Below, piece after piece: positions 1-31,130 of a stretch of 64,000 nt of DNA. The position numbers and the translations under genes were made by a program. Where the stretch lies: positions 12,306 through 76,305 of the forward strand of contig JAVCCL010000001.1 of NCBI GenBank assembly GCA_030765505.1, written 5' to 3'. Under the pieces are notes generated by a model that saw nothing but the letters and a program-made list of their open reading frames with translations, was not told where the DNA came from and did no database searches. Positions within the stretch are counted from its first letter, which is position 1; every line of letters begins with the position of its first letter. Origin of the DNA: Candidatus Kaelpia imicola. GTDB taxonomy: Bacteria > Omnitrophota > Gorgyraeia > Kaelpiales > Kaelpiaceae.

Positions 1-789
1 TGCAAATCCGATAGAGATTGCGGCAAGGTAGAGGTAAGTTTTATTCCCAGACTGATGGGATTGTATCATCAGGTAAATTCCAAGTAGAAGATAGAGAGAG
101 AAGCTTATGTCGAGGTAGGACCAGCCGGCAATCTTTGTTATTGTAGGAGCTGAGAGGAATATTATCCCTGCGATTATACCATATACAGGCTTGGCTTCTC
201 TGTTTAAGATTTTAACAAAGTCCATGATTAAAAAGATACTCATTATAAGGAATAGAGAGTGCATTAATTTAGGCATGATATCGCTAGATAGAGAGAGCAG
301 AAATGAATAGAAGAGCTCCCAGTAAGCGGGGAAGTAGCTATAGATGTTCTCCGTCATTGTAATAATTTGCCCATTTTCTAGATATAATTTGGGTAGGTAG
401 AGGTGGTAGTTTAATGCATCGCGTGAGATTGGGGGAGTTAGGGCATTAAGCTGTATTATGAAAAGATAAGATACTATTAATAATAAAGGTAAGACCAATT
501 CAGTTTTAATGGTTTTTAAGTAGCTGAGCTTCAATAGGCATGATCTGCAGTCTCTAATCATAGTCCGAAGCAGTGATAGCGACAGTATGATTATTAAGGT
601 CAAGATATACTGTGCTTTTAGCAGACCTGTAAATCCCAACAGAGTGGTTGTGAGAGTTATAAGTATAATAGCAACCGGTGTTTTACAATATAATTTGTTA
701 GATATATAAACGGGAATAATACACTTACCCAAATTGCTTAAAAGAAAGATCAGGTAAACATAGATTAGCAGTATTTTAAGTGTATCCAT
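1..789 (-). CDS. Polytopic membrane protein, GT-C-like (5' part only; the C-terminus lies beyond the window start)
   Basis: I translated the reverse strand from the ATG at 789 to position 1 and found an open frame throughout (263 codons). It reads MDTLKILLIYVYLIFLLSNLGKC... through a run of hydrophobic helices. The loop ...ISRDALNYHLYLPKLYLENGQ resembles the paralogous GT-C genes downstream. It is missing from the ORF track because there is no stop codon inside the window. Confidence 0.45.
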   Translation of the reverse strand, partial: MDTLKILLIYVYLIFLLSNLGKCIIPVYISNKLYCKTPVAIILITLTTTLLGFTGLLKAQYILTLIIILSLSLLRTMIRDCRSCLLKLSYLKTIKTELVLPLLLIVSYLFIIQLNALTPPISRDALNYHLYLPKLYLENGQIITMTENIYSYFPAYWELFYSFLLSLSSDIMPKLMHSLFLIMSIFLIMDFVKILNREAKPVYGIIAGIIFLSAPTITKIAGWSYLDISFSLYLLLGIYLMIQSHQSGNKTYLYLAAISIGFA

Positions 790-954: not shown

Positions 955-983
955 TTGACATGAAGGAGGTTTTTTGTTTAAAT
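955..983 (+). promoter_or_regulatory. Sigma70-like promoter for the pilin gene (TTGACA, 17-nt spacer, TTAAAT)
   Basis: TTGACA at 955-960 and TTAAAT at 978-983 are separated by 17 nt. They lie just upstream of the AAAGGAGG RBS and the ATG at 1013. An imperfect palindrome ccccaatg-cttaa-catcgggg at 926-946 sits between the divergent genes. Confidence 0.35.
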
Positions 984-1012
984 GTAAGAAATCAGTTAAA
1001 GGAGGTGTTAGT

Positions 1013-1339
1013 ATGAAACATGGTTTTACACTAATTGAGTTGGTTATGGTTATAGTTGTTATATCTATTTTGGCGGCAATAGCAGTGCCTAAGTTTATTG
1101 ACTTACAGGCAAATGCAAAACAGGCTGCTTGTGATGGAAATATTGCTACCGTAAGATCGGCAATTGCTGCATACTATGCAAAGACGGCGGTTGATGGCAG
1201 CGCGGAATTTCCTACAACCTTGGCTTTAACTACTTTTGTGCATAACTATTTTGCTGCTCAAGCGGCGCCGGCCTGTCCTTACGCTTGTAGTTATACCTAT
1301 AATGCAACCACAGGTGTTGCAACATCTCATAGCCATTAG
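1013..1339 (+). CDS. Type IV pilin / pseudopilin with a prepilin N-terminal methylation domain
   Basis: MKHG|FTLIELVMVIVVISILAAIAVP is the classic class III signal peptide with Glu at +5. AAAGGAGG precedes ATG 1013. The track start at 974 falls inside the predicted -10 element. The C-terminus is Ser/Thr-rich (YTYNATTGVATSHSH). Confidence 0.8.
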   Translation: MKHGFTLIELVMVIVVISILAAIAVPKFIDLQANAKQAACDGNIATVRSAIAAYYAKTAVDGSAEFPTTLALTTFVHNYFAAQAAPACPYACSYTYNATTGVATSHSH

Positions 1340-1352
1340 TATATAAATTTAT

Positions 1353-1394
1353 ATACGGCTTGTAGAGAGACTATGGTTTCCCTATAAGCCGTAT
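1353..1394 (+). terminator. Hairpin between the pilin and GT2 genes (possible attenuator or terminator)
   Basis: ATACGGCTT (1353-1361) pairs with AAGCCGTAT (1386-1394) as a 9-bp stem around a large loop. T-rich sequence follows. Confidence 0.25.
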
Positions 1395-1402
1395 TTCATT
1401 AA

Positions 1403-2263
1403 ATGAAGCTTTCCATTGTAATACCTGTCTATAATGAATCAGAGAATCTCCTCAAGCTTTTGGAAGAGATAGATAGAGAGCTCTCTGGATATGATAAAGA
1501 GATTATAGTGGTTGATGATGGCTCTGAAGATGAAATATCCCATCGGCTGGATCACGGTTTAGATTGTGTTAAATTGATTCAGCACCCTTATAATATAGGC
1601 AATGGTGCTGCGGTAAAGAGTGGTATTAGAGCCTCGAGCGGTGACTGGATATTATTGATGGACGCAGATTTGCAGCATCCCCCAAAAGAGATTACCAAGC
1701 TGCTTCAAGGGTTAGGTTCTTATGATATGATTGTCGGTTCAAGAGTTGGATATAAAGGTCCTTGGTATAGAAAGGTTGCAAACCATATATTTAATCGTCT
1801 ATCAAGTTATGTTACAGCTACAAAGATAGTCGATTTGACCTCAGGCTTTAGGCTTATCAGGGCAGATCTATGTAGGCGGTTTCTATATCTTTTACCCAAC
1901 GGGTTCTCTTATCCAACTACCTTAACGCTGGCTCTGCTTAAAACAGGTAGAAGTATAAAATTTCAAAAGGTTGACATGTTAAAAAGAGAGAAAGGACTAA
2001 GCAAGATAAATCCTTTAAAAGATGGAATGAAATTCATGCTTATTATTATAAAGATAGCCACTATCTATTCTCCATTCAAGGTGTTTTTACCTATCTCATC
2101 TCTGTTTTTCATTACAGGATTGCTTTATTATATCTACACTTATATTGACAGGCACAGTTTTACCAATATGAGCCTGCTGCTCTTCTCTACCTCTGTCATC
2201 ATATTTATGCTTTCGCTTATCGCTGAACAGGTTGCACAGCTTTACATAAAAGAGGATAGTTGA
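1403..2263 (+). CDS. GT2 polyprenol-phosphate sugar synthase (DPM1/GtrB/ArnC-like) with a C-terminal membrane domain
   Basis: VIPVYNESENL, VVDDGSED and LMDADLQHPP are GT-A DXD motifs. The C-terminus carries about three hydrophobic helices. Confidence 0.8.
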   Translation: MKLSIVIPVYNESENLLKLLEEIDRELSGYDKEIIVVDDGSEDEISHRLDHGLDCVKLIQHPYNIGNGAAVKSGIRASSGDWILLMDADLQHPPKEITKLLQGLGSYDMIVGSRVGYKGPWYRKVANHIFNRLSSYVTATKIVDLTSGFRLIRADLCRRFLYLLPNGFSYPTTLTLALLKTGRSIKFQKVDMLKREKGLSKINPLKDGMKFMLIIIKIATIYSPFKVFLPISSLFFITGLLYYIYTYIDRHSFTNMSLLLFSTSVIIFMLSLIAEQVAQLYIKEDS

Positions 2264-2283
2264 ACAGGGCTATGATATGAATT

Positions 2284-3762
2284 TTGGGAAGTCTGTTTAT
2301 CAAAGATAAAATCTGGATTCAATTCTCTATAATCTTTATTCTCGTCTTGATTGTATTTTTCAAAAGCTTGAGCTTTGAATTTAGCTGGCTGGACAATGCT
2401 CAGATTGAGGAAGAAAGCTGTATTATTCAAAGTCAGCAGGAGCTTGAAGACCTGTTATTTCAGCCGCTGCTTAATCCTAAAGGCCAGGGTAATTATTATC
2501 GGCCTCTATTTAAAATTTCGTACACATTGGATTTTTTACTCTACGGGAAAAACCCGCTGGGTTTTCGTATAACCAATATCCTGCTGCATATATTTAATTT
2601 AATATTGCTCTATGTTATTTTATTGAAATTTAAAATAGCTAAAGAGATATCTTTACTATCCACGCTTCTTTATGGTTTTTTGCCACTCAATACCTCAGCA
2701 GTGGTCTGTCTAGGGGCAAGGGCTGACCTGCTGGCTGCCTTCTTTGTTCTATTTGCGTTTCTGTCATATCTGACATTCCAGGAAAAGGGTAAGGCGGTCT
2801 ATTTTATCTGCTCTCTTTTAGGGTATATCTTAGCCTTAATGAGCAAGGAGATTGCCTTTCCATTTTTTTTGGTGATCTTTATCATTGCAAAAGCTAAAAA
2901 TCAGTTCAAGATCTGTAATATCTGGTATCTCTTACTTGCTTCGGGGTATCTGTTTATCAGGTTTAAAATCTTTGGTTATATCGGCAGTAGTCTATCTCTT
3001 TTGCGCGGCGAACCGTTTATAACTATTCTATCTTCTTTTGCAGGGTTTTTTAGGTATCTGTTTAAGTTCTTTATGCCTTTCAACCTTTCTTTAAGCGATG
3101 CTTTTCCAAAATATAGTTCTATCTTTAACTTTGAGGTTATTTTTGGATTAATCTTATTCTTCATGATAGCCCTATTCTTTATCCGTTCTGTAAGAAGAGA
3201 AAACTTAACCCTCTCTCTGTTTTTAGGATGGTTGCTGTTCTTCTATATTCCTATATCGAATATTGTCCCGGCTTTACATTTTTGGGCCGAGAGGTTTTTC
3301 TATCTCCCTGGCATTGGATTGATTGGGGTCGTTGGGTATCTTATCTCAAAGAGAAAAAGTCTTAAAATACCATTGGTAGCGGTTGTTCTATTTTACGGTC
3401 TTTTTAATCTTAAATATCAGGAGTATTTTAAAAATAACGAGCTGCTCTTTAGGAGGGCGATTGATATCTCTACAAAGAGTGAAGAGGCATATAATATGCT
3501 GGGCTATCATCATCTTTTAAATAATGACTATTTCCGGACAATATATTATTATCATTTGGCAACACAGGATTTCAGCGGTTATTATACTTACTCTTCTCTG
3601 GATGAGACCTGTAACAATTTAGGTGTAGTATTCTTGAGATTGAAACAGTATAAAGAGGCTAGAAAATGGTTCCAGTCTGCAGTAGCATTAGATGGAGATG
3701 ACAGTAAGGCTGTTTTAAATTTAAAAATATTGGATTTCATTGAGAGTGCTGATGTTAAATAG
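2284..3762 (+). CDS. TMTC-like GT-C glycosyltransferase (DUF1736 membrane domain + C-terminal TPR), paralog 1
   Basis: The first loop has a WLDN..EEE acidic motif and YRPLFKISYTLDF. It also has NILLHIFNLILLY and GARADLL. C-terminal TPR-like repeats are present. The start is TTG, so the start position is uncertain. Confidence 0.65.
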   Translation: MGSLFIKDKIWIQFSIIFILVLIVFFKSLSFEFSWLDNAQIEEESCIIQSQQELEDLLFQPLLNPKGQGNYYRPLFKISYTLDFLLYGKNPLGFRITNILLHIFNLILLYVILLKFKIAKEISLLSTLLYGFLPLNTSAVVCLGARADLLAAFFVLFAFLSYLTFQEKGKAVYFICSLLGYILALMSKEIAFPFFLVIFIIAKAKNQFKICNIWYLLLASGYLFIRFKIFGYIGSSLSLLRGEPFITILSSFAGFFRYLFKFFMPFNLSLSDAFPKYSSIFNFEVIFGLILFFMIALFFIRSVRRENLTLSLFLGWLLFFYIPISNIVPALHFWAERFFYLPGIGLIGVVGYLISKRKSLKIPLVAVVLFYGLFNLKYQEYFKNNELLFRRAIDISTKSEEAYNMLGYHHLLNNDYFRTIYYYHLATQDFSGYYTYSSLDETCNNLGVVFLRLKQYKEARKWFQSAVALDGDDSKAVLNLKILDFIESADVK

Positions 3763-5212
3763 AGATGATATCCTGCCTTTACTAATAATTGTAGCTGCAG
3801 GACTGATTGTCTATATAGGTATTTTAGATGCCCCCTTTATCTATGATGATATCCACCTTGTATTAAACAATGAGCTGATAACCTCTTTTAAGTATATCCC
3901 CGAGCTTTTTAAGACTATATTCAATTCTGATATCTTGAGATTACCTTTTAGGCCCTTGCAGATTATCTCCTATATGTTTGACTATAAGCTCTGGACTTTT
4001 GACCCTAGAGGCTACCATCTTATCAACGTCTTACTTCACGTATTTAATAGCTTGCTATTATACGGTTTAAGTCTACGATTCTTCAAAAGAAGAAAAGAGG
4101 CTTTCTTAATAGCACTTCTGTTTGTAATTCATCCTCTCAATACTGGTGCGGTAAGCTATATATCTGGTAGAGCCGATCTATTAGCAGGATATTTCTCTTT
4201 TCTATCTCTGATCTTATTTTTCAGGTTCTTGGATAGTCATAAGAATATTGCTCTTATTTTAAGCATGCTGTCTTTTGTAGCTGCAATCTTATCTAAAGAG
4301 ATAGCTTTGATAGTACCTCTATTACTTTTGACCTATGTAGTTATCTTCTATCGCCCTTCTTTGCGTTATCTTATTTGCCATCTGGTTATTGCTGCTATTT
4401 ACATGCTGTTGAGATTGCCGGGTTTTCTAGCCGCTACTTTTTTTAAGCCTACGTTAAGCGGAAGATTTTTAACTGCACCCTATCTATTTTTTAGATATTT
4501 AAAAATAATATTTTTTCCTCACAACCTTAGGCTGTCCTATGCTATCAGTTATATAGATTCACCCAAAGACCCTGCATTTATTCTATACTTTATATTGCTC
4601 TCTTTAGTCGTCTGCCTTGGACTCTATTCAATTAGAAAGAGCAAGAGAATGGTATTTTTCTCTATATGGTATATCCTGAACTTTCTGCTTATATCCGGGG
4701 TAGTAGTTGCATTGAATGCTCCTTGTGCCGAGCATTGGCTCTATCTGGGATTGCCTGCAATATTTGCTTTAATGGTATCGTTAATATATAGTCTCTTTTA
4801 CAGGGGAGCAGTATATAGGTATGCCGGTTATATCTTTATAACAGGTATGCTTATATACTATGGATTTTCAACTCTAGAGCGCAATAAAGAGTGGGGGACT
4901 CCTGAAGATTTTTATAAGAACGAGATTGAACATACCCCGTCTAATTACAAAGCTCATTATAATCTGGGCATAATATATTTTAATGAAGGAAGATATCTGG
5001 ATGCCGAAGAAGAGTTCAAAAAAACTATTACGATATTTCCTGAACTTCACCTGGCCTATTATGGCCTTGCTTTAACTGCTGAAGAGAGAGGAGATATGGA
5101 TGAGGCCATCAGCTGCTATTGTAAGAGCTTGGATATAGCTCCGGAATTTGATCTGGGAAGAGAGAGACTCAAAATTTTAAAAGGGAGCTATCTTGGTGAT
5201 GTTAAAAAATAG
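3740..5212 (+). CDS. TMTC-like GT-C glycosyltransferase (DUF1736 + TPR), paralog 2
   Basis: FIYDDIHLVLNNELI (a DD loop motif), FRPLQIISYMFDY, INVLLHVFNSLLLY and SGRADLL are present. The C-terminus has TPR repeats (AHYNLGIIYFNEGRYLDAEEEF...). Confidence 0.75.
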   Translation: MRVLMLNRDDILPLLIIVAAGLIVYIGILDAPFIYDDIHLVLNNELITSFKYIPELFKTIFNSDILRLPFRPLQIISYMFDYKLWTFDPRGYHLINVLLHVFNSLLLYGLSLRFFKRRKEAFLIALLFVIHPLNTGAVSYISGRADLLAGYFSFLSLILFFRFLDSHKNIALILSMLSFVAAILSKEIALIVPLLLLTYVVIFYRPSLRYLICHLVIAAIYMLLRLPGFLAATFFKPTLSGRFLTAPYLFFRYLKIIFFPHNLRLSYAISYIDSPKDPAFILYFILLSLVVCLGLYSIRKSKRMVFFSIWYILNFLLISGVVVALNAPCAEHWLYLGLPAIFALMVSLIYSLFYRGAVYRYAGYIFITGMLIYYGFSTLERNKEWGTPEDFYKNEIEHTPSNYKAHYNLGIIYFNEGRYLDAEEEFKKTITIFPELHLAYYGLALTAEERGDMDEAISCYCKSLDIAPEFDLGRERLKILKGSYLGDVKK

Positions 5213-7139
5213 ATGGTGCATTCTTTTGCTTTTTTTGATTTTAGGTTTTGGTCTCTATTCAACTTCGTTGAATAATGGATTTATATTTAGCGATCATTAT
5301 TTAATAGGAGAGAATTGTTTGATAAAAAGTTTCTCTTTTACCCCCTATTACTTTCTGGGCTATATATCTCAAGATGTTAAAAAAGCATTCAGGCCTTTAT
5401 TTATGCTTAGCTATAATTTGAGTTATAGCTTATCGAATTATAATGCTTCAGGGTATAGAGCTTTTAATATTCTGCTCCATGTTCTCTCTGCGTTTTTTCT
5501 GTATAGAATATTATGTCTATTCTTTAGAGAGTCTAATTCAAAAATAGCGCTCTTACTATCTATCTTTTTTTTGGTTCATCCCATTAATCTTGACGCGGTA
5601 GTGCATATTATGGCAAGGTCTACTTTGCTTTTCAGTCTCTTTATACTTCTCTCTTTCCATTCTTATCTAAAGTATAGTCTGTCTAAAGCTAAACATCTAT
5701 TCTATCTTTCCATCGTATTTTATCTATTTGCTGCTTTAACCAAAGAGCATTTTGTTTTGTATATTCCAATTTTATTCTCATACATTCTGTTGTTTGATAA
5801 GAGAGGGTTAAAAAAGTTTACCTGTTTGATTTCTTATCTTTTAATCTCAATCTCTGTCTTTATCTATTGGAAAATAATGAGACTGGCTGTTTTTGCAGAA
5901 GCTGCAGTAGATATTCAGTTTAGAACCTGGGGGCTAAATCTTCTGACCCAACTTAAAGCTCTGCTTCTCTTTATAAAGCTTTTCTTTGTCCCGGCAGGAT
6001 TTTCTTTTGATCATCAGAACATAGAGGTTCTATCGTACTTCGATGCGGCAGGCTGGATTACGGTCTCTATTCTTACCGCTTCTTTGATAGTCTTTTTAAG
6101 AACCGATAACAGAATAAAATTTGGAATTCTGTGGGGAGTATCTTTTTATTTTTGGAGATTTTGTATTCAACTGGAATCAATAGCCAGAGAGCGCCATTTC
6201 TATTTAACCCAGATAGGCATTATATTTCTTCTCTATATATTTTTAAGCAGAGTGAAGATTAGAAGATATATTTTAAATCTGCTTCTAGTTATGTTTTTAA
6301 TTGGACTTGGACTAATTACATATTTGAGAAACCCGCTTTATAAAGATGAGCTTATCATATCCTGTGATATTATGGAGTGTTATCCGGATTCTGAGATTGC
6401 TAATTTTCAAATCGGAACATATTTTAAAACGGAAAAAAGATATTCTGCTGCAGAAGAGCGATTTAATCGATTAATATTAAATGCTAGAAATCCCCAGCTT
6501 AAAGCAAAAGCGCTTCTTAGCTTAGCCCAGATAAGAATTGATGAAGCTCGATACGAAGAAGCAGAGGAGATTGCCATAAAGACTTTTAAGGAGTTTCCTT
6601 ATATTAATGACGTTTACAGCTTGCTTGGATTTTTATATTTAAAGAGCGGTAAATCTGGCTTTGAGAGGTTGATTAAAATCTACCCTTACAATGCGAAGCT
6701 TCTGTTCTATGCCGGAGACTATATGTTTAGGAAGGGTAATCTGGATGAGGCCCGCAACTATTTGAACAGATCTTATAATTTAGGTTTAGATTGTCCGGGG
6801 TATTATTTTCTTTTTGGTAGAATAAGCGAGTTTGAGGGTGAGAGAGATGAGGCTATAGATTACTATAAGAAGCTTTTTTCAGTCTACCCTTTTCATAGAG
6901 AAGGGTGTTTCTATTTAGGCTCTCTTTTGGCTCAGAAAGATTCAGAAGAAGCCGATATTTACCTGAAGAGAGCTTTAAAGATTGACTCTTCATTTGCTGC
7001 TTCTTATTACAATTTAGGGTTATATTATCTGAGTCGGGGTAATAGAGATGGGGCGGTTAGGTTGATAAAGAGAGCAGAATCTCTGGGGTATGGTATACCT
7101 CCTGAAGTAGAGGCAGTTATAGCTAAAGGGATATTATGA
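5193..7139 (+). CDS. TMTC-like GT-C glycosyltransferase (DUF1736 + extended TPR array), paralog 3
   Basis: FIFSDHYLIGEN, FRPLFMLSYNLSY, NILLHVLSAFFLY and MARSTLL are present. There are at least six C-terminal TPR units. Confidence 0.75.
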   Translation: MVMLKNRWCILLLFLILGFGLYSTSLNNGFIFSDHYLIGENCLIKSFSFTPYYFLGYISQDVKKAFRPLFMLSYNLSYSLSNYNASGYRAFNILLHVLSAFFLYRILCLFFRESNSKIALLLSIFFLVHPINLDAVVHIMARSTLLFSLFILLSFHSYLKYSLSKAKHLFYLSIVFYLFAALTKEHFVLYIPILFSYILLFDKRGLKKFTCLISYLLISISVFIYWKIMRLAVFAEAAVDIQFRTWGLNLLTQLKALLLFIKLFFVPAGFSFDHQNIEVLSYFDAAGWITVSILTASLIVFLRTDNRIKFGILWGVSFYFWRFCIQLESIARERHFYLTQIGIIFLLYIFLSRVKIRRYILNLLLVMFLIGLGLITYLRNPLYKDELIISCDIMECYPDSEIANFQIGTYFKTEKRYSAAEERFNRLILNARNPQLKAKALLSLAQIRIDEARYEEAEEIAIKTFKEFPYINDVYSLLGFLYLKSGKSGFERLIKIYPYNAKLLFYAGDYMFRKGNLDEARNYLNRSYNLGLDCPGYYFLFGRISEFEGERDEAIDYYKKLFSVYPFHREGCFYLGSLLAQKDSEEADIYLKRALKIDSSFAASYYNLGLYYLSRGNRDGAVRLIKRAESLGYGIPPEVEAVIAKGIL

Positions 7140-7230
7140 AAACCTTGCTCTTAAATCCGCTTCTCAGAGAGAGGCTCGGCTCTAAATACGAAAGATATTA
7201 TATAAGGTCTGAATTCCGAAAAGAATCTCT

Positions 7231-8742
7231 ATGTTTAAATTTAAAAAAATAAGAACATATCATCTTATCATTCTTCTCAGTATTCTCTTTTGGTGTTTTG
7301 CATTGAGTAATATAAGTATTGATTTTTCGGAAACAGGTGGCGATAGTGCGCAGTATCTTATTCTTGCCAAAAGCATTTTGAGCGGTTGCGGGTATCGTGC
7401 TTTAAACCTGCCTGGTGAACCCCTTTTTGATCACTATCCGCCGGTCTTCCCGACTTTTCTTTCTTTTATTATAGCTATTTTTGGTCTTAATTATCAGGTT
7501 ATCTATATTTTTATTGCGATTGTGGGGTATATTAGCCTCATTTTAACATACTATTTGATGAGGAATTATTTAGACAGGAGAGGTTCTCTTCTAATATGCC
7601 TTTTAACAGCTTCAAACCTCTTCTTTTTTATTTATATAACTATGCATATATTGACCGAAGCGCTATATCTTTTTTTATCTCTTTTAAGTTTTTTATTAAT
7701 TTTGAAGTACTTTAGTTTTTACGATAAAAAGAGATATATTGTTTTAATACTATCTTTTATTTCAATTATTCTTAGTTATTTTACACGCTATATAGGTATC
7801 AGTCTTTTTTTAGCTGTCATTCTATTTCTTATTAAAACAGAACGTGATTATAAAGCAGCATTAAACCTCTCGGTTTTATTTTTTATATTTTTTCTTATCT
7901 GGAGATTTATCCCTTCGAGCTTGGATATTAACAGCAGCTATATTACAGGGCAGTTTTGGCTAATAGACCCCTACAAACCTTTCTTGGGCAGCATATTTAC
8001 GGATCCGGGCACATTTATTTTAAGAATTATAGAAGGAGTTAATATATATTGTAGGGATATAGCAGTTATTATTATTCCTCTCATAGGTTTAAAAAATTAT
8101 TCCATTTTCAATTTTATATGGTTATCTGTAGTATTGTTTATTCTATTTGGATTATGTTCAAGTTTTAAGGATAAGAAAAAGCCTATATTTAACTACTATT
8201 TTATTATCTATATGGTTATTTTAGTTGTCTGGCCCTATAGAGAGACTTATAGGTTTCTTATGCCGATAATTCCTTTTCTCTATTATTATTTCATAAAAGG
8301 TGTAACTAAGGCCTTGTTTTTTATTAAAATTAAATATACCTCTTCCATCCTTTGCCTTATATTGGTTGTGGTTTTACTGATAAATATAACCAGCGATTTT
8401 TTTATAATTCCAGATCTGACTAAAATATCGGAAGCAAAAAAGGAGTTCATAGCTCTTCATGATTGGATAAATGATAATATAGTAAACGATAAGATAATAC
8501 TATCACGTAAGCCGACCGTGAGTTATTTACTTACAAAGCACAAGTCGTTAATATTTCCCTATAGTAAAGATTCAAACGATATCTGGAATAGGGTTGTTGA
8601 AGAAGAGATAGGCTATATAGTAGTAGATAATTTCTCACCGCAGACCCGTATATATCTAGGGCCGTTTCTATATCAGTTTAAAGATAAAATAAAACTTATT
8701 TATATGAAAGGTGAATCTGGAGTCTTTGAGGTGCTGCGTTGA
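7231..8742 (+). CDS. GT-C family polytopic membrane glycosyltransferase-like protein
   Basis: About 12 predicted TM helices. The N-terminal loop GGDSAQYLILAKSILSGCGY is paralogous to the 52093..53535 protein (DSPRYITTADSIASGNGY). Confidence 0.5.
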   Translation: MFKFKKIRTYHLIILLSILFWCFALSNISIDFSETGGDSAQYLILAKSILSGCGYRALNLPGEPLFDHYPPVFPTFLSFIIAIFGLNYQVIYIFIAIVGYISLILTYYLMRNYLDRRGSLLICLLTASNLFFFIYITMHILTEALYLFLSLLSFLLILKYFSFYDKKRYIVLILSFISIILSYFTRYIGISLFLAVILFLIKTERDYKAALNLSVLFFIFFLIWRFIPSSLDINSSYITGQFWLIDPYKPFLGSIFTDPGTFILRIIEGVNIYCRDIAVIIIPLIGLKNYSIFNFIWLSVVLFILFGLCSSFKDKKKPIFNYYFIIYMVILVVWPYRETYRFLMPIIPFLYYYFIKGVTKALFFIKIKYTSSILCLILVVVLLINITSDFFIIPDLTKISEAKKEFIALHDWINDNIVNDKIILSRKPTVSYLLTKHKSLIFPYSKDSNDIWNRVVEEEIGYIVVDNFSPQTRIYLGPFLYQFKDKIKLIYMKGESGVFEVLR

Positions 8743-10166
8743 TGGATAGAAGAGAGAGGGGATATCTTGCTCTCGTTGTATTAATAGCTCTCGGATTGAG
8801 GTTGTATTATATCTGTCAGCCTATGCGTTACGATGAGGCATTTGGATTTTTATTCTTTTTCTCTCAGCCGCTGTCGTTTTCGTTGTCACATTATATTGCA
8901 CCCAACAATCACCTTCTCTATAATCTCTTTGCTCACCCTCTATATGTTTTACTAGGGGATTCTGAATGGGTTATGCGTATACCTTCTTTTCTCTTTGGAC
9001 TTCTATTAATTCCTGCAGGTTATTATTTGATATCATCTTTGTTTAATAAAGAGTCTGGCTTGCTCTCTGCCGTACTCCTTGCAACTTCATCTCTCCTTAT
9101 AGAGTATTCTACTAATGCCAGAGGCTATACTCTCTATCTGTTGCTGGCTATTGTTTTTTTCTATTCTATAGAGCTTATATTTAAAAAGCAGAAAGGGGGT
9201 TGGGTATATTTTATACTCTCGGCAACCTTGGGTCTATATACTATTCCGGTTATGGTTTACCCTATTATAGTAGGATTATTTTGGTTTTTGACCAGGATTA
9301 TTCAAGATAGATTTAAAAAACATAAAATTAAAATGTTGATTATTTCAATGATAATTGTATCGTTGCTAAGTTTAGGGTTATATCTTCCGGTTATTCTGCA
9401 ATCTGGACTGGCTTCTATTTTTGCAAATAGATTTGTTAGTCTCGGATGCTCTTTTGGTTTTATAGAGGATTTGCCCCGATATTTATCTAATCTTTGGTCA
9501 AGCTGGATGAGGGATTTTCCTGGCTGGGATAGATTGGCATTAGTTCTAGCGTTATTTGTGGGAACTGTAGGGTCAAAAGAGTTAAGGAAAAAATATATCT
9601 CTATTCTAATACCGTCCGTTTTAGCTATAATGAGCATATTATTTTTAAGCAGAAAGATTCCTCCTCAGAGAGTCTTTATGTTTCTAATTCCGTTATATTT
9701 TGGAGCTGTCTCTTCGGCTTTAGTCTATATTTTTAAATGTGATTTTAAAAAAGTATTGTTCAGAATAATAGTTATATCGATTACCTTATTTCTCTCTTTT
9801 GCGGTTATTAAGGAGGGTGCTGTTATTAAGAGCGAAGAGACAGGGACTTTGAGCGGAGCAGAAGATCTGGTTTTATTTTTAAAAGGACGACTTAAAGAGG
9901 GTGACAATGTGTTATGTTTTATGCCTGTAGACTTTATTCTTGCCTATTATTTTAACCATTATAGTATCTCTTGGAGTTATCTGGGGGCAGATTTGAAGAC
10001 AACAGAGAGAGTCTTTATTGTTTTAAAAAAAGGGCAGGATTTAAGCTCTTTATTGGAGAAAAATAATCTCCCTAGTTTTTTAAATAACAGCAAATATATA
10101 ACGTCATTTAAAGATGCGAATCTCTATAGTTATTTGGATTTTAAATCGACTTTGTTACAATTTTGA
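8739..10166 (+). CDS. GT-C (PMT_2/ArnT-like) membrane glycosyltransferase
   Basis: The N-terminal periplasmic-loop motif PMRYDEAFGF is like the ArnT/PMT DE..Y motif. The protein is multi-TM. Confidence 0.55.
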   Translation: MMDRRERGYLALVVLIALGLRLYYICQPMRYDEAFGFLFFFSQPLSFSLSHYIAPNNHLLYNLFAHPLYVLLGDSEWVMRIPSFLFGLLLIPAGYYLISSLFNKESGLLSAVLLATSSLLIEYSTNARGYTLYLLLAIVFFYSIELIFKKQKGGWVYFILSATLGLYTIPVMVYPIIVGLFWFLTRIIQDRFKKHKIKMLIISMIIVSLLSLGLYLPVILQSGLASIFANRFVSLGCSFGFIEDLPRYLSNLWSSWMRDFPGWDRLALVLALFVGTVGSKELRKKYISILIPSVLAIMSILFLSRKIPPQRVFMFLIPLYFGAVSSALVYIFKCDFKKVLFRIIVISITLFLSFAVIKEGAVIKSEETGTLSGAEDLVLFLKGRLKEGDNVLCFMPVDFILAYYFNHYSISWSYLGADLKTTERVFIVLKKGQDLSSLLEKNNLPSFLNNSKYITSFKDANLYSYLDFKSTLLQF

Positions 10167-10215
10167 AAGAGTGTATTAGGTTTATAAGTTTTATCTAAAG
10201 GCATAGAATTTTATT

Positions 10216-11289
10216 ATGAAGAAGAAAACGGTTATTATCTCTCTTTCCGGTATAGGCAATACTATATTAGCAATACCTTTTTTGAAAAACCTCCGGCATA
10301 TTATTGATACGGATATAAGGTTGGTCCTATTAAATGCAGGTCTTGGAAAGATGCTTAAAGATGCAGGGTTAATAGATGGCTATTCTGTTTTTACAAGAAG
10401 TATATTAGCCAATTTAGTCCTGTTATTTAAATTACACAAGCAGAGGTTTGATTATTCGTTTACTGTTTTTCCTTCGAATAAAACAGCGCTAAATATTCTG
10501 GTGTTTTTAATTGCAGCACAGAATAGAATTTCGCATAGATATAAGGGTGGATTATTTAGGTTTGATTTTTTAATCAATAAGAAGGTAGAGTCAGATGTGA
10601 AGATTCATGATTTAGAACAGAATTTAAATCTCCTCAAAGTCTTAGATGGTAGAGATGGGGGAATAAGTTATGATTTAAACCTTAAACTTAATTATGATAA
10701 TTTTGAAATTGTAAAACGATATATAGAAAATAGAGGTTTAAATAATAAATTTTTAGTAGGGATTCATCCTGGAGGAGGAGGTTCTTGGAATAAGAGCTGG
10801 CAGGGTCATAAAAAAAGGTGGCCTATAGAAAGATTTGCAGAACTATCTCAAAGATTAATTGACGATAAAGATGCATATATTCTTATTTTTGGAGGTAATG
10901 AGGAAAGTTCTTTAAAAAATAGATTAGCAGATTATATAAAAGATAAAGCTAGAGTATTCGTTATGGATAGTCAGTCTTTGGAATTAACAGCACTCTTCAT
11001 AGAGTGTTGTAAGTTATTTATATCCAATGATACTGGGCTTATGCACTTAAGTTCTGCTTTATCAATTCCAACTTTAGGCATTTTTGGACCTAGTAACCAT
11101 GCAAGAACAGCTCCACGTGGCAAGAAGAGCTTTTATATAATGAATAATGTAGTTGATTGTTCACCTTGCCTAAGATACCCCTTCTATTCAAGCAGGAGCA
11201 GCATAGACTGCTCTAGGGGTTTAGCTTGCTTAAAGAGTATAAGCGTTGATGATGTTTATAATAAGTTAAGAACCAAGGGGTTAGTATAA
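10216..11289 (+). CDS. GT9 family glycosyltransferase (ADP-heptose:LPS heptosyltransferase-like)
   Basis: N-terminal ISLSGIGNTILAIPFLKNL, then GIHPGGGGSW, and C-terminal ISNDTGLMHLSSALSIPTLGIFGPS. Confidence 0.8.
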   Translation: MKKKTVIISLSGIGNTILAIPFLKNLRHIIDTDIRLVLLNAGLGKMLKDAGLIDGYSVFTRSILANLVLLFKLHKQRFDYSFTVFPSNKTALNILVFLIAAQNRISHRYKGGLFRFDFLINKKVESDVKIHDLEQNLNLLKVLDGRDGGISYDLNLKLNYDNFEIVKRYIENRGLNNKFLVGIHPGGGGSWNKSWQGHKKRWPIERFAELSQRLIDDKDAYILIFGGNEESSLKNRLADYIKDKARVFVMDSQSLELTALFIECCKLFISNDTGLMHLSSALSIPTLGIFGPSNHARTAPRGKKSFYIMNNVVDCSPCLRYPFYSSRSSIDCSRGLACLKSISVDDVYNKLRTKGLV

Positions 11290-11290
11290 A

Positions 11291-11929
11291 GTGATAAGGA
11301 TTGAAGTTGATTATAAAATAAGCTCGGATCTGGCAGCTATTATAAAAGACCGCATTAAAGGTTACATTTTAGATGTAGGAACTGGAGACGGCTCTAAGCT
11401 TTACCATCTGTTGGAAGGTTCTAAATTTAAAAAAGCCGTAGCCTTAGAGCCAGATTCTTCAAAAATTGATTCTGCAAAAAAATTATTTAAAAAAGATGCT
11501 AGAGTAAAGCTTATAAATACAGATTTAAAACATATGCCTAGACAGATTGGGCAGTTTGATTTAGTCATGATGTTTGAAGTTATAGAACACATACCTCTTG
11601 CTTTGCTTGATGGTTATATCAGGAGGATAAGAGGGCTGCTTGTTAAAGGAGGTATCATAATAGTCTCATCTCCTAATAGGTATATATATCGCATGATATG
11701 CAATTTAAAGCTGGAAAAGAGAGAGTCGACTCACGTATCAGAGATGAATTGGCTAGAACTGAGAAGGTTTATGAAGAATTATTTTAAAGAGCAGGTTTTT
11801 AAAGGAGAGTTTCCAGGTATGAGCATCACAAGAAGATTCCCTGTGTTTTACAATTATTTTTCGCTATTAAACAAAAATTTTGCTCATCCGGCTGTATCGC
11901 GTGCTATATACTGGGTTGGTGAAAAATAG
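11291..11929 (+). CDS. Class I SAM-dependent methyltransferase
   Basis: ILDVGTGDGS is the glycine-rich motif I. The start is GTG. Confidence 0.7.
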   Translation: MIRIEVDYKISSDLAAIIKDRIKGYILDVGTGDGSKLYHLLEGSKFKKAVALEPDSSKIDSAKKLFKKDARVKLINTDLKHMPRQIGQFDLVMMFEVIEHIPLALLDGYIRRIRGLLVKGGIIIVSSPNRYIYRMICNLKLEKRESTHVSEMNWLELRRFMKNYFKEQVFKGEFPGMSITRRFPVFYNYFSLLNKNFAHPAVSRAIYWVGEK

Positions 11930-11936
11930 CTTTGCC

Positions 11937-12749
11937 ATGATAAGTAAAGGTTTTTTAAAAGATAAAAATCTGAAAATAGTCTATTTGCATCCCCATGGTT
12001 TGGGAGATTTAATACTCTCTATGCCTAGTTTGGAATATATTATGGGGAGAGATTCTAATTTCGGCTTGATTGTAAAAGATGCTATATATGATTCTGGATT
12101 CTTTAAAAGCTATCCTTATAAAGAGAGAATTTTCTCTGGATGTTCTTGCATATGGGATAGACTTCAAATCGTCAAAAGCTTTAAAAATATAGATAAAATG
12201 GTAGAAGATATTAAAATTATCGGTATAGATGTTTTCTATCTTAAATTTAATAAAAATATCGATAGAAGGTTACAAATAAATAAAGGCTTAAGCAAATATA
12301 TCGGTATGGATATACCTTTTGATGATAGAGTTCATGGTAAGATCTATGTAGAAGATAAAGATATAAGATGGGCGCAGAGCAATATTAGTTCAGGAGTATT
12401 TTTTCATAGCTATTCTGAATCTGGATTTAAATCAATATTACCTAAAAAATTGAAGAAAATGACAGGCTTAAAAGATACTCCTCTTTTTATACCTACTATA
12501 GGAGATAATATTAATTTGAACTTTGCTGCTCAGAAGATAAGTAAAGTTAATATAGTAATAGATTCTGTCTATATGCATTCTTCAGCTGCTATGGCTAAGG
12601 ATATTGATTTACTATTTGTATCTTTTAAGGTAAAAAAATTCTTCCAAACCTTAAAACCTAAAAATATTAATATAAATAAAATTATCTACGGTAATTTATT
12701 TGATGCTTTAAATTCTTTTTTATTCTATAGATTTAAGAAGTTAAAATGA
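11937..12749 (+). CDS. Divergent GT9-like protein
   Basis: LKIVYLHPHGLGDLILSMPSLEYI resembles the GT9 N-terminal motif, and IVIDSVYMHSSAAMAKDIDLLF resembles the C-terminal one. The track ORF starts at 11880 and overlaps the upstream gene; ATG 11937 is more plausible. Confidence 0.4.
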   Translation: MISKGFLKDKNLKIVYLHPHGLGDLILSMPSLEYIMGRDSNFGLIVKDAIYDSGFFKSYPYKERIFSGCSCIWDRLQIVKSFKNIDKMVEDIKIIGIDVFYLKFNKNIDRRLQINKGLSKYIGMDIPFDDRVHGKIYVEDKDIRWAQSNISSGVFFHSYSESGFKSILPKKLKKMTGLKDTPLFIPTIGDNINLNFAAQKISKVNIVIDSVYMHSSAAMAKDIDLLFVSFKVKKFFQTLKPKNININKIIYGNLFDALNSFLFYRFKKLK

Positions 12750-12753
12750 AATT

Positions 12754-13887
12754 ATGGATTTAAGATTAAAATTGTTACGAAGCGGATTATTAAAACAATT
12801 TATAAGATGGGGTCTAACAGATGCCATTCTCGATCTTTACTGGAGTAGAGATAATAAATCCTTATGGAAAGAAATTAAGAGCAGTGGGTATATAGATAAA
12901 CCTAGAACAGTCTGGTTTGAACCAACAATGCGCTGTAATCTTCGTTGTGATTTTTGCCATCAGAATTCAAGAAGGAGCTTAAATTTTAAAGAACTAAATA
13001 TGCAGGAGATAGAAAAATTTTTAGATTGTGTAAAAGATTGGGGTATAGATTTGATAGAGATGGTAGGGGGAGAGATATTTATGAGAGAGGATATCTTTGA
13101 AATATTAGATCTTATAGAGATTCGGAGTATGAAGGTAAAATTAGGTACTAATGGCTATCTTCTGGATCAAGAGAGGGTAGAGAGGCTGAAAACTTACAAA
13201 TCTATAGAGAGCATAGCAATCTCAATAGATGCGGATAGAGAGCGTCATAATAGCTTAAGAAAATCAGGAGATTCTTTTCAAAGAGCTTGTCGAGCATTAG
13301 AGTTATTATGTGATGCTCCGTTTATAGTTGGACTATATGCCATTATTGTCTCTGAGAGCGTTGATTCTATTGGCTACCTCATTGATTTGGCCTCTAAATT
13401 AAAAGTCGATAGGCTTACATTTATGCCTGAAATGTTTTATTCAAAAAATGATATTGAAGAGGCGTCTGATATTTTGCATTTTAATCAGAGTGACAGGTTC
13501 TTTATACAGCAAAAAGAGCTTAGCGATAAAAAAACATATTTGCAAAAAAATACCGCTGCTATTTATGAGATAAGGAATTTAAGAAAAAGAAGTGCTGTAT
13601 TTACAGCTATATACCCAAGGATTGCAGCGAAATATCCACTTGAATTCTTTCAAGGTCGAGTGCAGAAAGAGAAGAGTTTGATATGTAAGAATCTCTGCTC
13701 CTTGACAGTTATAGAGAATGGAGATGTGCTGGTATGCCCTTTTATATACAAAAAGATTGGCAATGTAACTGAAAATAGCCCATTTGAATTTTGGAATAGC
13801 AAACTCATGCAGAGTTTACGTAAAGATATATTAAATAATAATCTATTACCTATATGCAAAAAGTGTTGTTCGTTAGCTTACATCTGA
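12754..13887 (+). CDS. Radical SAM protein with a C-terminal SPASM/twitch-like Cys cluster
   Basis: CNLRCDFCHQ is a CxxxCxxC motif. The C-terminus has CKNLCS..VCPF..CKKCC cysteines. Confidence 0.75.
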   Translation: MDLRLKLLRSGLLKQFIRWGLTDAILDLYWSRDNKSLWKEIKSSGYIDKPRTVWFEPTMRCNLRCDFCHQNSRRSLNFKELNMQEIEKFLDCVKDWGIDLIEMVGGEIFMREDIFEILDLIEIRSMKVKLGTNGYLLDQERVERLKTYKSIESIAISIDADRERHNSLRKSGDSFQRACRALELLCDAPFIVGLYAIIVSESVDSIGYLIDLASKLKVDRLTFMPEMFYSKNDIEEASDILHFNQSDRFFIQQKELSDKKTYLQKNTAAIYEIRNLRKRSAVFTAIYPRIAAKYPLEFFQGRVQKEKSLICKNLCSLTVIENGDVLVCPFIYKKIGNVTENSPFEFWNSKLMQSLRKDILNNNLLPICKKCCSLAYI

Positions 13888-16112: not shown

Positions 16113-16610
16113 ATGCGGCAAAACAAGGCCTTTACTTTGATTGAGCTTATAATTCTTATCACAATCTTAGGTTTTGTAGTACTGATATCTGTGCCTAATA
16201 TTGATTCTTATTTGGATGCCAGGATATATTCCTGTGCTCAGAAGATAAGTTCTGACATAAGATATACTCAGTATCTCTCTATCGCAGAGCATGAGAGCTA
16301 TGGCTTGGAGTTCAATGCTGCGGCTAATTATTATCGAGTCTATGAGGTTGATACAGGCAATCCGGCTACAGATCCTTATAGCCGGGCTAATATGGAATTA
16401 GATTTGGATACAACAGGGGAGTATAAAGGGGTTAGCATTAGTTCTGTAAATATAGATGCTTCAAATGAGTTAAGGTTTTCATCTTTGGGTGAGCCTTTGG
16501 ATTCATCCGGTAATGATTTATCGGCAGTAGGCACGATAGCTTTAAATTATAGGGGCAGGTCTAAAACAATTATGATATATCCTGTAACAGGGTGGGTGGA
16601 GGTTCAGTGA
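16113..16610 (+). CDS. Pseudopilin (GspH-like) with a prepilin N-terminal domain
   Basis: MRQNKA|FTLIELIILITILGFVVLISVP. Confidence 0.7.
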   Translation: MRQNKAFTLIELIILITILGFVVLISVPNIDSYLDARIYSCAQKISSDIRYTQYLSIAEHESYGLEFNAAANYYRVYEVDTGNPATDPYSRANMELDLDTTGEYKGVSISSVNIDASNELRFSSLGEPLDSSGNDLSAVGTIALNYRGRSKTIMIYPVTGWVEVQ

Positions 16611-17092
16611 AAGGTCTAACTCTTATAGAGATAATAATCTCAATAGTGGTCTTTGTCCTTATTGCAATTCCTCTTATGAATATATTTGCTACTGTTTCTC
16701 GGGATACCGATGTTGGTATCTATATTAATCGCGCTTCTAGCATGGCTGCATCTTGTATGGAGTTGATCTTAAGTAGATCCTTTGACGAAGAGTCTTCCTC
16801 TCCATTTACAAATCCTGTTGACCTCGGGCCAGATAGCGGTGAGATTACATTGACTGATTATGATGATGTGGATGATTTTGACGACTACTCTTTTACAGAT
16901 TCAGACTATCCCGGCATTACAACCACTGTATCTGTTTATTATGTGGATAATCCTGATTCCTCAGCTGATTGGGATAATACAGCTGCAGCTGCAACAGATT
17001 ATAAGAGGATAGATATATCGGCTGCTCATGCTCAACTTGGTACTGTAACTCTATCTAACGGAGTTAGTTATGCAGGGCATAATACGAAATAA
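16607..17092 (+). CDS. Pseudopilin (GspI-like)
   Basis: The GTG at 16607 is preceded by GGAGGT, giving MKGLTLIEIIISIVVFVLIAIPL. A GTGA overlap joins it to the upstream gene. Confidence 0.65.
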   Translation: MKGLTLIEIIISIVVFVLIAIPLMNIFATVSRDTDVGIYINRASSMAASCMELILSRSFDEESSSPFTNPVDLGPDSGEITLTDYDDVDDFDDYSFTDSDYPGITTTVSVYYVDNPDSSADWDNTAAAATDYKRIDISAAHAQLGTVTLSNGVSYAGHNTK

Positions 17093-17600
17093 AAAGTCAT
17101 TTACAATAATAGAGATAGTAATGGTCATCGTTCTTGTAGGAGTCTTCTCTTACGGTGTCTCACTCTATGTACTTAGAGTAGTTGATTCTTGGAAATTTTT
17201 AACTCAGAGATATGAACTGGAGCAGGATTCTAAATTAGCACTTGATTTTATGAGCCGGGATTTAAAAGAGATAGATATAGACTCATCATCCAATCCTACC
17301 ATAAGTTCTGCAAAAGATGATGCTGTAACCTTTACAAATACTGGTGCAGAAAGCATTGTCTATACATATAGCAGTAACGTTATCTATAAAAACTCTCAAC
17401 CCTTAACGAAGAATATAAGTAGTTTCGAGATAAAGTATTATAATCAGAGCAATGTTGAACTTGTTCCTGCTGCTGGGGTCCTATCTGCTGCACAGATTAA
17501 AGATATCTGGTATCTATACTTAAGATTCAGCGCTTCCAAGGGTGATCAGAGCAGTCTTTATAACTCTTATATTTTTCCGAGAAACTTTTTATCCAGATGA
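17070..17600 (+). CDS. Pseudopilin (GspJ-like)
   Basis: KKS|FTIIEIVMVIVLVGVF is a prepilin motif. Confidence 0.65.
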   Translation: MQGIIRNKKSFTIIEIVMVIVLVGVFSYGVSLYVLRVVDSWKFLTQRYELEQDSKLALDFMSRDLKEIDIDSSSNPTISSAKDDAVTFTNTGAESIVYTYSSNVIYKNSQPLTKNISSFEIKYYNQSNVELVPAAGVLSAAQIKDIWYLYLRFSASKGDQSSLYNSYIFPRNFLSR

Positions 17601-17929
17601 ATAATTTAATTAAAAAAGATGGGTTGGCTCTTCTCTTGGTAATCTTTGTAATGATGCTATTTTCTATTTTTGGAATGATGCTTGCCTCTATTTTTGCTAA
17701 TAGAACTGAAGTAGCAAAAGGGTTTTACCGCATGGCTCAGACTATGTTTGTAAATGATATGGGAATTGAGAGGGCAAAGCAGAAACTCTATGATGATTGG
17801 AGCTATAGGACGGCAGGCTTAAATGAAAGCGTAGATATAGCGGGACTTAATAGCAGTTATACAATCATAATTGCTGGAGCTTCTGGAGATCCGGTTGAGA
17901 TAAGCGTTGAAAGTGAAATATTGGATTAG
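17597..17929 (+). CDS. Minor pilin (GspK/PilX-like, short)
   Basis: N-terminal GLALLLVIFVMMLFSIFGMMLASIF. It is translationally coupled to the upstream gene. Confidence 0.45.
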   Translation: MNNLIKKDGLALLLVIFVMMLFSIFGMMLASIFANRTEVAKGFYRMAQTMFVNDMGIERAKQKLYDDWSYRTAGLNESVDIAGLNSSYTIIIAGASGDPVEISVESEILD

Positions 17930-18691: not shown

Positions 18692-18954
18692 ATATAAAGT
18701 TCTGGCTTCTGGTGGGTTTCTTGGGGCAGATAATGTTCTCTATGCGTTTTTTAATTCAGTGGCTTGCATCTGAGAAAAAGAAGAAGAGTATAGTTCCGAT
18801 ATCTTTCTGGTATTTTAGCATAGCAGGAGGAATATTACTTCTAAGTTATGCTATATTCCGCAAAGACCCTGTTTTTATATTAGGACAGTCAATGGGTGTA
18901 ATCATATATTCGCGTAACCTGTATCTAATACATAAGAAATATCAAGTCGATTAA
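18688..18954 (+). CDS. LAB_N (lipid-A-biosynthesis N-terminal domain) small membrane protein
   Basis: WLLVGFLGQIMFSMRFLIQWLASEKKKKSIVPISFWYFSIAGGILLLSYAIFRKDPVFILGQSMGVIIYSRNL matches the LAB_N signature as I remember it. Confidence 0.6.
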   Translation: MNIKFWLLVGFLGQIMFSMRFLIQWLASEKKKKSIVPISFWYFSIAGGILLLSYAIFRKDPVFILGQSMGVIIYSRNLYLIHKKYQVD

Positions 18955-26061: not shown

Positions 26062-26082
26062 CGCTTATTTAGACCTCTTTTC

Positions 26083-29344: not shown

Positions 29345-29347
29345 GAT

Positions 29348-31127: not shown

Positions 31128-31130
31128 ATT

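Follow-up and report, generated by a model that had tools for sequence, protein, structure and literature searches.

A type IV pilin gene of the uncultivated bacterium Candidatus Kaelpia imicola (Omnitrophota) and the glycosylation genes that follow it probably form a pilin-accessory glycosylation cassette, of the pilA-tfpW kind known from Pseudomonas, set inside a type IV pilus gene cluster. The genes lie near the start of a 64,000-nucleotide stretch (contig JAVCCL010000001.1 of a metagenome-assembled genome, positions 12,306 to 76,305 of the forward strand), the whole of which is called the window here. They encode the pilin, a glycosyltransferase of family 2 (GT2) of the polyprenol-phosphate sugar synthase class, and three tandem multi-pass membrane proteins in which a GT-C-type glycosyltransferase domain is followed by tetratricopeptide repeats (TPRs). 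We refer to the latter as TPR-GT-C proteins and to the three in the window, in gene order, as ORF1, ORF2 and ORF3 (ORF, open reading frame; coordinates are given in Table 1). An earlier note, made from the sequence alone, had listed these five genes in a common orientation, likened the three TPR proteins to the TMTC O-mannosyltransferases of eukaryotes under the family label DUF1736, and proposed that they glycosylate the pilin. We find all five genes where they were listed, on the plus strand, and apart from the DUF1736 label the observations hold. The interpretation is partly supported: the synteny is convincing and makes a GT2 donor synthase working with a periplasmic GT-C/TPR transferase on the neighboring pilin the best reading, whereas the family assignment fails its hidden Markov model (HMM) test. 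The cassette is most likely a variant of a known pilin-accessory kind, not a wholly new system.

The pilin gene, its candidate donor synthase and their conserved neighborhood

The gene order pilin, GT2, three TPR-GT-Cs, PMT_2 is kept in two related loci (L001 and L002) and in Ca. Saelkia tenebricola (L003). The pilin orthologues in these loci are 74-81% identical to that of the window, and the middle TPR-GT-C, ORF2, is 73, 72, and 43% identical in L001, L002, and L003, respectively. In L003 the whole neighborhood can be read: PilB (T2SSE and MshEN domains), PilC (T2SSF), PilZ, a GT2, a weakly PMT_2-like gene on the minus strand, the pilin, the GT2, three TPR-GT-Cs, PMT_2, a GT4, a methyltransferase, four minor pilins and, last, a GT2, a LAB_N protein and a PMT_2 protein. 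In this type IV pilus cluster a glycosylation island is thus flanked by the major pilin gene on one side and by the minor ones on the other. No pilus machinery genes lie within the window itself, and its cluster presumably shares the PilB/PilC context of the L003 orthologue. The product of the gene at the left edge of the window (1-789, minus strand) is 44% identical (E 2e-61) to that of the weakly PMT_2-like gene of L003 (5189-7024, minus strand), and the two are orthologues; PilB, PilC, PilZ and a GT2 precede the latter on the map, which matches PMT_2 below threshold (23.6 bits, cut-off 26.1), while the partial ORF in the window has no Pfam match. The minor-pilin orthologues in L003 match at E 1e-54 to 1e-75. 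The content of the accessory island varies, with extra radical S-adenosylmethionine (SAM)/B12 and GT4 genes in L001 and L002, and a GT4 but no GT9 gene in L003.

A wider view of the arrangement comes from a reciprocal search that was conditioned on the pilin and yielded 80 metagenome loci. Pilins were classed as related where the match covered at least 95 of the 108 residues at an identity of at least 43%, and as generic where only the N-terminus matched. The next downstream gene was a glycosylation gene in 10 of 11 informative loci with related pilins, compared with 2 of 45 with generic ones (Fisher p 2e-8). This gene encoded a TPR-GT-C in eight loci (L076-L081, L083, and L086), a GT2 in one (L082), and in one (L088) a protein with a Wzy_C domain and TPRs. 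Orthologues of the window's GT2 occur in the pilin loci L079, L081, L082, and L086 (E 1e-78 to 1e-90). A TPR-GT-C gene thus directly adjoins the pilin gene in L076-L081, L083, L086 (on the minus strand) and also L013, while in the window the GT2 alone intervenes. All of the pilin-adjacent TPR-GT-Cs carry the canonical FxxDD motif, and for most of them the window's middle paralogue is the nearest of the three, alone or tied.

The other search was conditioned on the GT-C and covered 75 genome loci, 72 of them analysable. Because such loci are enriched for GT-Cs by construction, a strict count of neighbors in them is uninformative. Four diverged loci nevertheless provide an independent link to pilins: PilT-PilB-PilB-PilC-TPR-GT-C-pilin in L007, where the TPR-GT-C gene lies upstream of the pilin gene and overlaps it by 8 nt; PilC-pilin-pilin-Wzy_C/TPR-TPR-GT-C-minor pilins...PilM in L012; PilM-pilin-pilin-TPR-GT-C-PilM-PilN in L013; and pilin-Wzy_C/TPR-PMT_2/TPR-TPR-GT-C in L031. 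The minor pilins behind the glycosylation genes of L012 are homologous to those of the window (the first three at E about 1e-18 to 1e-21, the fourth at 8.5e-07). Clustering at 70% identity sorts the cases from the pilin-conditioned search, taken with the window group and L012, into 10 pilin lineages. This recurrence, and conservation in three related genomes, put the arrangement far from what chance would give. Synteny was a check that the earlier note had itself proposed, and the outcome is strongly positive: TMTC-like genes do co-occur with pilin genes.

The pilin has 108 amino acids, 104 when mature. It shows the class III signal peptide of type IV pilins, MKHG/FTLIE (G/F-T-L-I-E at the cleavage site, marked by the slash), followed by a hydrophobic helix, and matches PF07963 (29.5 bits) and TIGR02532. 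Its sequence runs from the leader MKHG through FTLIELVMVIVV... to the tail ...YTYNATTGVATSHSH, and aromatic residues (F+Y+W) make up 10.6% of the mature protein. The C-terminal tail of this pilin family is conserved as Y-x3-[TS]-G ... H-x-H (positions 1300-1339 in the window; also in L001-L003, L076-L079, and L088). It could act as a metal-binding or TPR-recognition tag; the tail as a TPR ligand and its near-invariant Thr as an acceptor site are both speculative candidates. Pilus machinery is seen in the orthologous L003 locus, in L007, L012, and L013, and in L079-L117, and the homologous pilins of L012 and L076-L088 are located after PilB/PilC. A weak N-terminal match to GspG led us to consider a type II secretion pseudopilin, which was rejected given that the homologues accompany PilB (MshEN), PilC, PilM, PilZ and minor pilins.

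The gap between the pilin and GT2 genes contains a stable stem-loop followed by a U-rich tract. Its folding energy is -25.2 kcal/mol (z -6.5) for RNA spanning 1335-1410 and -24.1 kcal/mol (z -7.2) for 1340-1402, and hairpins of differing sequence are found at the equal position in L001, L002, and L003 (z -5.7, -6.4, and -4.2). The element is likely an attenuating terminator that sets the ratio of pilin to accessory-gene expression. A Rho-independent terminator after the pilin gene is common in the pilin-accessory cassettes of Pseudomonas aeruginosa (PMC11841053).

The GT2 has a catalytic domain (PF00535, 2.5e-31) and two C-terminal hydrophobic helices that form its membrane anchor, as the earlier note had said in assigning it to the DPM1/GtrB class. 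Searches of PDB bear out that assignment, with an alignment over the full length to GtrB (5ekp, residues 2-281) and matches to ArnC (9hwj, 3e-21, residues 2-249) and to the dolichol-phosphate-mannose (Dol-P-Man) synthase of Pyrococcus (5mlz, 4e-22). The best NCBIfam matches are all polyprenol-phosphate sugar synthases, and all score below the equivalog cut-offs at which the sugar could be named: AglJ (94.7, cut-off 325), ArnC (81.8, cut-off 529), PgfS (80, cut-off 500) and PpgS (66.8, cut-off 370).

The TPR-GT-C family and its relation to TMTC and TfpW

ORF2 has a counterpart of 100% identity at NCBI, a Candidatus Kaelpia imicola protein whose only annotation is "tetratricopeptide repeat protein". 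The three ORFs are paralogous multi-pass membrane proteins with C-terminal TPRs, share 25-28% identity with one another, and match a family membrane-domain profile, which was built with all three included, at E 8e-113 (ORF1), 9e-138 (ORF2) and 4e-104 (ORF3). The family has 679 matches at E <= 1e-5 among the candidates scored. In contigs from one genome per species, 581 of the first 600 pattern matches were relatives, nearly all of them from Omnitrophota. Many or most members sit in tandem arrays of up to 8 paralogues, and the arrays in L005 (CP070807.1, 1,446,082-1,468,221), L009, L041, and L055 have neither a pilin nor a GT2 gene within 10 kb.

The earlier note had described the three proteins as DUF1736 plus TPR. 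The three TPR membrane paralogues are indeed there, but DUF1736 (PF08409) is below threshold in ORF2 (17.5-18.2 bits, cut-off 27) and absent from the other two. ORF2 scores higher against PMT_2 (30 bits, cut-off 26.1), and ORF1 and ORF3 match neither model, TPRs being their sole Pfam matches. Likewise, PF08409 is missing from the precomputed Pfam lists of 120 of 120 listed homologues, and when 16 family membrane domains were scanned alone, two touched PMT_2 and two touched DUF1736 (sub-threshold). A sequence search of PDB with the membrane domain alone gave no match even at E 10, and with the full-length family profile it was dominated by TPR proteins. Because the Pfam check, the criterion that the earlier note had set, failed, the likeness to TMTC is one of architecture and collinear motifs and not of membership in the family. 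Despite the failure of DUF1736, the three proteins are GT-C enzymes as judged from sequence.

Invariant or nearly invariant in the family alignment are F-x-W-D-D, Y-R-P-L, H-P, G-R-A-D, S-K-E, and A-E-H-W-L-Y. Only the middle paralogue of the three carries the complete set: ORF2 has FIYDD, FRPL, GRAD, SKE, and AEHWLY. ORF1 has WLDN for WDD, LP for HP, and AERFFY, while ORF3 has FSD for xDD and has lost RxD (ARST). These substitutions are kept in the orthologues in L001, L002, and L003 and are therefore selected states, not decay; they suggest altered chemistry or non-catalytic partner subunits. A confident model of ORF2 shows a GT-C transferase of 11 helices whose TPR tail is periplasmic. Two transmembrane (TM) helices and then the TPRs come after the ExxxY loop in this model, the K/R-rich loops are on the other side of the membrane, and by GT-C topology the TPRs would lie on the periplasmic side.

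Animal TMTCs form CAZy family GT105 (PMC10214176) and carry seven motifs, M1-M7: DD, SHKSYRP, RxD, KE(T/Q)xxT, DW, PxxP, and ERxxY (Eisenhaber et al. 2021, PMC7801869). Full-length prokaryotic homologues were noted in that work as uncharacterized (PMC7801869). Like eukaryotic TMTC1-4, ORF2 and its relatives have an N-terminal 11-TM GT-C module followed by TPRs that would be extracytoplasmic, the likeness being judged from architecture and motifs. M1, M2 (YRP/FRP), M3, M4 (KE), and M7 (E[HR]xxY) are collinear in ORF2 and in the family consensus, while M5 (DW) and M6 (PxxP) were not recognized. M2 and M3 are 73 residues apart, compared with 72-74 in TMTC1 and TMTC3; the M1-M2 and M3-M4 distances are also similar, and the M4-M7 segment is about 40 residues shorter. 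Three homologues are annotated by JGI as 'protein O-mannosyl-transferase'. The differences from TMTC are the below-threshold or absent PF08409, the proposed acceptor (pilin in place of cadherin domains), and the donor lipid, which would be undecaprenol where TMTCs use dolichol.

The closest experimentally characterized analogue, going by its published description and not by sequence comparison, appears to be TfpW, overlooked in the earlier note's statement that bacterial TMTC homologs have no described function. TfpW of P. aeruginosa Pa5196/PA7 (group IV) is a GT-C 646 aa long whose 11 predicted TM helices are joined by a C-terminal, periplasmic TPR domain. DDx occurs in its periplasmic loop 1 and Y-x6-P-F-x7-P in its loop 4, and its best template is ArnT (bioRxiv 10.1101/2020.04.19.049825). 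Its gene directly follows pilA, and O-arabinosylation of the pilin from a polyprenyl-P-sugar depends on the enzyme; no flippase is known for that system either (bioRxiv 10.1101/2020.04.19.049825). The resemblance lies in the position of the accessory genes, which follow the major pilin gene in the same orientation and past a terminator, and in a GT-C that has about 500-650 aa, 11 TM helices, a TPR domain predicted to be periplasmic, and DD in loop 1. It extends to ArnT being among TfpW's structural relatives and to TfpW's donor being a polyprenyl-monophosphate sugar. In loop 4 the family consensus is Y-x6-P-[FI]-N-L-H-M-E-Y, with Y-x6-P-F-x8-P in ORF1 and Y-x6-P-H in ORF2, so that the second Pro is spaced differently from that of TfpW. 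Unlike the TfpW system, the window has no D-arabinofuranose (D-Araf) genes, the DprE1/DprE2/phosphoribosyltransferase pathway not being found in Pfam scans that covered most window ORFs of 100 aa or more; the co-encoded enzyme is instead a GT2 of the DPM1/GtrB type, and a sugar other than TfpW's is therefore implied. It also differs in having three tandem paralogues, two with altered catalytic motifs, in its extra GT-C, GT9, methyltransferase, and radical-SAM genes, and in its host, an omnitrophote and not a proteobacterium.

TfpO/PilO and PglL are likewise encoded by accessory glycosylation genes next to pilin genes, and the domain of these pilin O-oligosaccharyltransferases is Wzy_C, an O-antigen-ligase domain. 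Wzy_C + TPR fusions directly follow homologous pilins in L012 (7996-9969), L031 (6476-8293), and L088 (10492-12597), the same slot that TPR-GT-Cs fill elsewhere. TfpO/PilO and PglL differ from the TPR-GT-Cs in fold and in donor, an undecaprenyl-diphosphate-oligosaccharide (Und-PP-oligosaccharide) transferred en bloc, and no Wzy_C protein was found in the window. The pilin-modifying 'Ogt' of Synechococcus was considered as a relative and rejected; it is a cytoplasmic GT41 enzyme, not a GT-C. Three-component systems pair a GT2, the source of a polyprenol-P-sugar, with a GT-C that transfers the sugar outside the cytoplasm (PMC11194591). GtrA/B/C, ArnC/ArnEF/ArnT, and Ppm1/Pmt share this GT2 plus GT-C logic with the window's cassette; their GT-Cs lack TPRs and act on O-antigen, lipid A or, broadly, secreted proteins.

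Proposed pathway and competing explanations

In the pathway that we infer, the pilin gene would be strongly transcribed, and the hairpin terminator behind it would pass a fraction of transcripts into the accessory genes. Using a nucleotide sugar as its donor, the GT2 would charge undecaprenyl phosphate with the sugar on the cytoplasmic side of the membrane. The lipid-linked sugar would then be flipped, with the LAB_N protein of a second module behind the minor pilin genes (Table 1) as a candidate flippase. On the periplasmic side, toward which both its DD/RxD/KE/ExxxY site and its TPR domain are predicted to face, the canonical enzyme ORF2 would glycosylate a Ser/Thr of the pilin while this is still anchored in the membrane and not yet assembled, the TPR domain probably docking the conserved pilin tail. 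The two divergent paralogues may extend or branch the glycan, act at other sites, or serve as partner subunits, and the PMT_2, GT9, methyltransferase, and radical-SAM genes could elaborate a glycan that varies between lineages.

Several points weigh against this reading. The pilin is placed in the role of acceptor from gene context alone, and its proximity to the glycosylation genes in a single genome is weak evidence by itself because the window has eight GT-C genes in 64 kb as well as lipopolysaccharide (LPS) core and 3-deoxy-D-manno-octulosonate (Kdo) genes 10-20 kb downstream. No flippase gene is present in the first module, and two of the three paralogues, lacking the canonical DD of the first loop, may be inactive. 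The pilin tail, present as described in the earlier note, is Ser/Thr-rich in the window, a richness not conserved among its relatives, where only one Thr (that of Y-x3-T-G) is nearly invariant. Moreover, 62 of the 72 analysable GT-C-centered loci have no pilin-like ORF in the available flanks.

One rival is that the GT2 and the GT-Cs form a general system of periplasmic protein O-glycosylation that serves numerous targets, among which the pilin would be just one, perhaps minor, and that the adjacent copies are simply placed in a convenient operon. We regard this as unlikely. In its favor are the massive expansion that the family has undergone in Omnitrophota, where arrays reach 8 genes with no pilin within 10 kb, and the wide variation in TPR length (members range from 486 to >800 aa), which suggests many different clients; eukaryotic TMTCs, moreover, serve a whole domain class (PMC7801869). 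It sits poorly with how tight and recurrent the adjacency is (the next gene in 8 of 11 loci, an 8-nt overlap in L007, and a position between major and minor pilin genes) and with a neighbor-joining tree in which the pilin-linked members and the ORF2 clade are basal and distinct from a crown of tandem arrays.

The cassette might instead act on LPS, at lipid A or the core, or on some other envelope glycan, in the manner of ArnC/ArnT or GtrABC and with the pilin as a bystander; for the cassette as a whole this strikes us as quite improbable. RgtE and RgtA-D of Rhizobium are an example of such a system. Several observations favor this view: the GT2 is equally similar to ArnC and to Dol-P-Man synthase; the operon also contains PMT_2/ArnT-like GT-Cs and a gene of GT9, the family of heptosyltransferases; further GT9 genes, with genes for Kdo and heptose, are found at 23-34 kb; and the second module includes a LAB_N protein. 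However, the other loci keep pilins and type IV pilus machinery beside their TPR-GT-C genes, not LPS genes, the island is located inside the pilin cluster, and the same slot is filled by Wzy_C/TPR proteins in L012, L031, and L088. For the TPR-less PMT_2 enzymes and the second module, modification of LPS is plausible.

It is very improbable that the TPR proteins are mainly non-enzymatic factors of pilus assembly or stability (scaffolds comparable to PilF/PilW), or that the genes are neighbors through inherited synteny and have no functional tie: a weak TPR match to the type IV pilus protein PilW (TIGR02521, 24.6-35.2 bits, cut-off 154) and the degenerate catalytic motifs of two paralogues are outweighed by the strict or near-strict conservation of DD, RxD, KE, and ExxxY, both family-wide and in each pilin-adjacent member, by a dedicated donor synthase co-encoded in at least eight loci, and by the recurrence of the adjacency in 10 pilin lineages.

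The pilin-accessory reading can be extended into a broader conjecture, which as a whole we consider doubtful. The TMTC-like GT-C/TPR family would originally have been dedicated to pilins, with the TPR domain clamping the Y-x3-T-G...H-x-H tail and presenting the nearby Thr. The one catalytic and two degenerate paralogues would form hetero-oligomers like Pmt1-Pmt2, and the tandem arrays would encode an extensive, client-specific surface O-glycoproteome. The family would then stand at the prokaryotic root of animal TMTC and possibly of TfpW.

Organization of the window and significance of the cassette

From the GT2 gene to the end of the radical-SAM/SPASM gene (1403 to 13887), all genes are co-oriented, with overlaps or short gaps throughout, and one divergent radical-SAM gene separates this island from the minor-pilin genes (Table 1). 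The two TPR-less PMT_2-type GT-Cs have orthologues in L001-L003. The second module adjoins the minor pilins, is kept in Ca. Saelkia (L003), and could have lipid A or pilins as its target.

Table 1. Features in the window and the matches or properties by which they were assigned.
Feature	Position	Strand	Basis or remarks
Divergent multi-pass membrane protein, 5' part	1..789	-	Translation; extends past the window edge
Type IV major pilin	1013..1339	+	N_methyl and TIGR02532 matches
Stem-loop with U-rich tract	1353..1394	+	RNA fold; between pilin stop and GT2 start
GT2 polyprenol-phosphate sugar synthase (GtrB/ArnC/DPM1 type)	1403..2263	+	PF00535 and PDB matches
ORF1, TPR-GT-C paralogue 1	2284..3762	+	492 aa, about 2-3 TPRs
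ORF2, TPR-GT-C paralogue 2, predicted canonical enzyme	3752..5212	+	486 aa, 11 TM helices, full motif set
ORF3, TPR-GT-C paralogue 3	5193..7139	+	648 aa, about 7 TPRs
Two TPR-less PMT_2-type GT-Cs, same operon	7231-8742, 8739-10166	+	PMT_2, 40.1 and 49 bits
GT9, SAM methyltransferase, 289-aa protein (function not assigned), radical-SAM/SPASM protein	10216..13887	+	Pfam
Four minor pilins (FimT/GspH-like, PilV-like, PilW-like, PilX-like)	16113..17929	+	Prepilin motifs; end of the pilin cluster
Second module: soluble GT2	17981-18691	+	PF00535, 3.7e-33
Second module: 88-aa LAB_N membrane protein, candidate lipid-sugar flippase	18688-18954	+	PF07578, 119.5 bits
Second module: PMT_2 GT-C	18955-20442	+	PMT_2, 58.4 bits
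LPS core/Kdo block: double GT9 fusion (655 aa), DUF3108, PfkB kinase, KdsB, DUF1846, KdsA, KdsD, KdsC-like HAD, ManC	23300-34147

Eight GT-C-type membrane proteins in 64 kb is an unusually dense set; the count includes the three TPR-GT-Cs, the unconfirmed product of 1-789 (minus strand), the PMT_2 pair behind ORF3, the PMT_2 protein of the second module, and a protein encoded at 52093-53535 (minus strand). Elsewhere in the window, an ORF of 1161 aa (39544-43029, minus strand) is an unusual fusion of spermine-synthase-like, FMN_bind and 4Fe-4S (Fer4_5) domains, and near the window end (58839-61612) an IS66-family transposase lies beside a Mu-type transposase/integrase. A scan for sigma-70 promoters gave matches no commoner than in shuffled sequence.

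In the literature searched, TMTC and TfpW are never mentioned together in one paper, and the Omnitrophota literature searched describes type IV pili and not their glycosylation. The cassette links the animal TMTC O-mannosyltransferases, TfpW of Pseudomonas, and a large gene family of Omnitrophota whose striking expansion there adds to its interest, and it gives bacterial TMTC-like proteins a concrete, testable candidate client in the adjacent type IV pilin. Pilin, GT2, and GT-C together make a compact candidate for a minimal system in glyco-engineering. In the ultra-small, probably host-dependent Omnitrophota, type IV pili are believed to serve in attachment to the host (PMC10066038), and glycosylation of the pilin shields Pseudomonas from pilus-specific phages (PMC11841053). 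Hence, a variable island of pilin-glycan genes would bear on both the specificity of attachment and the evasion of phages.

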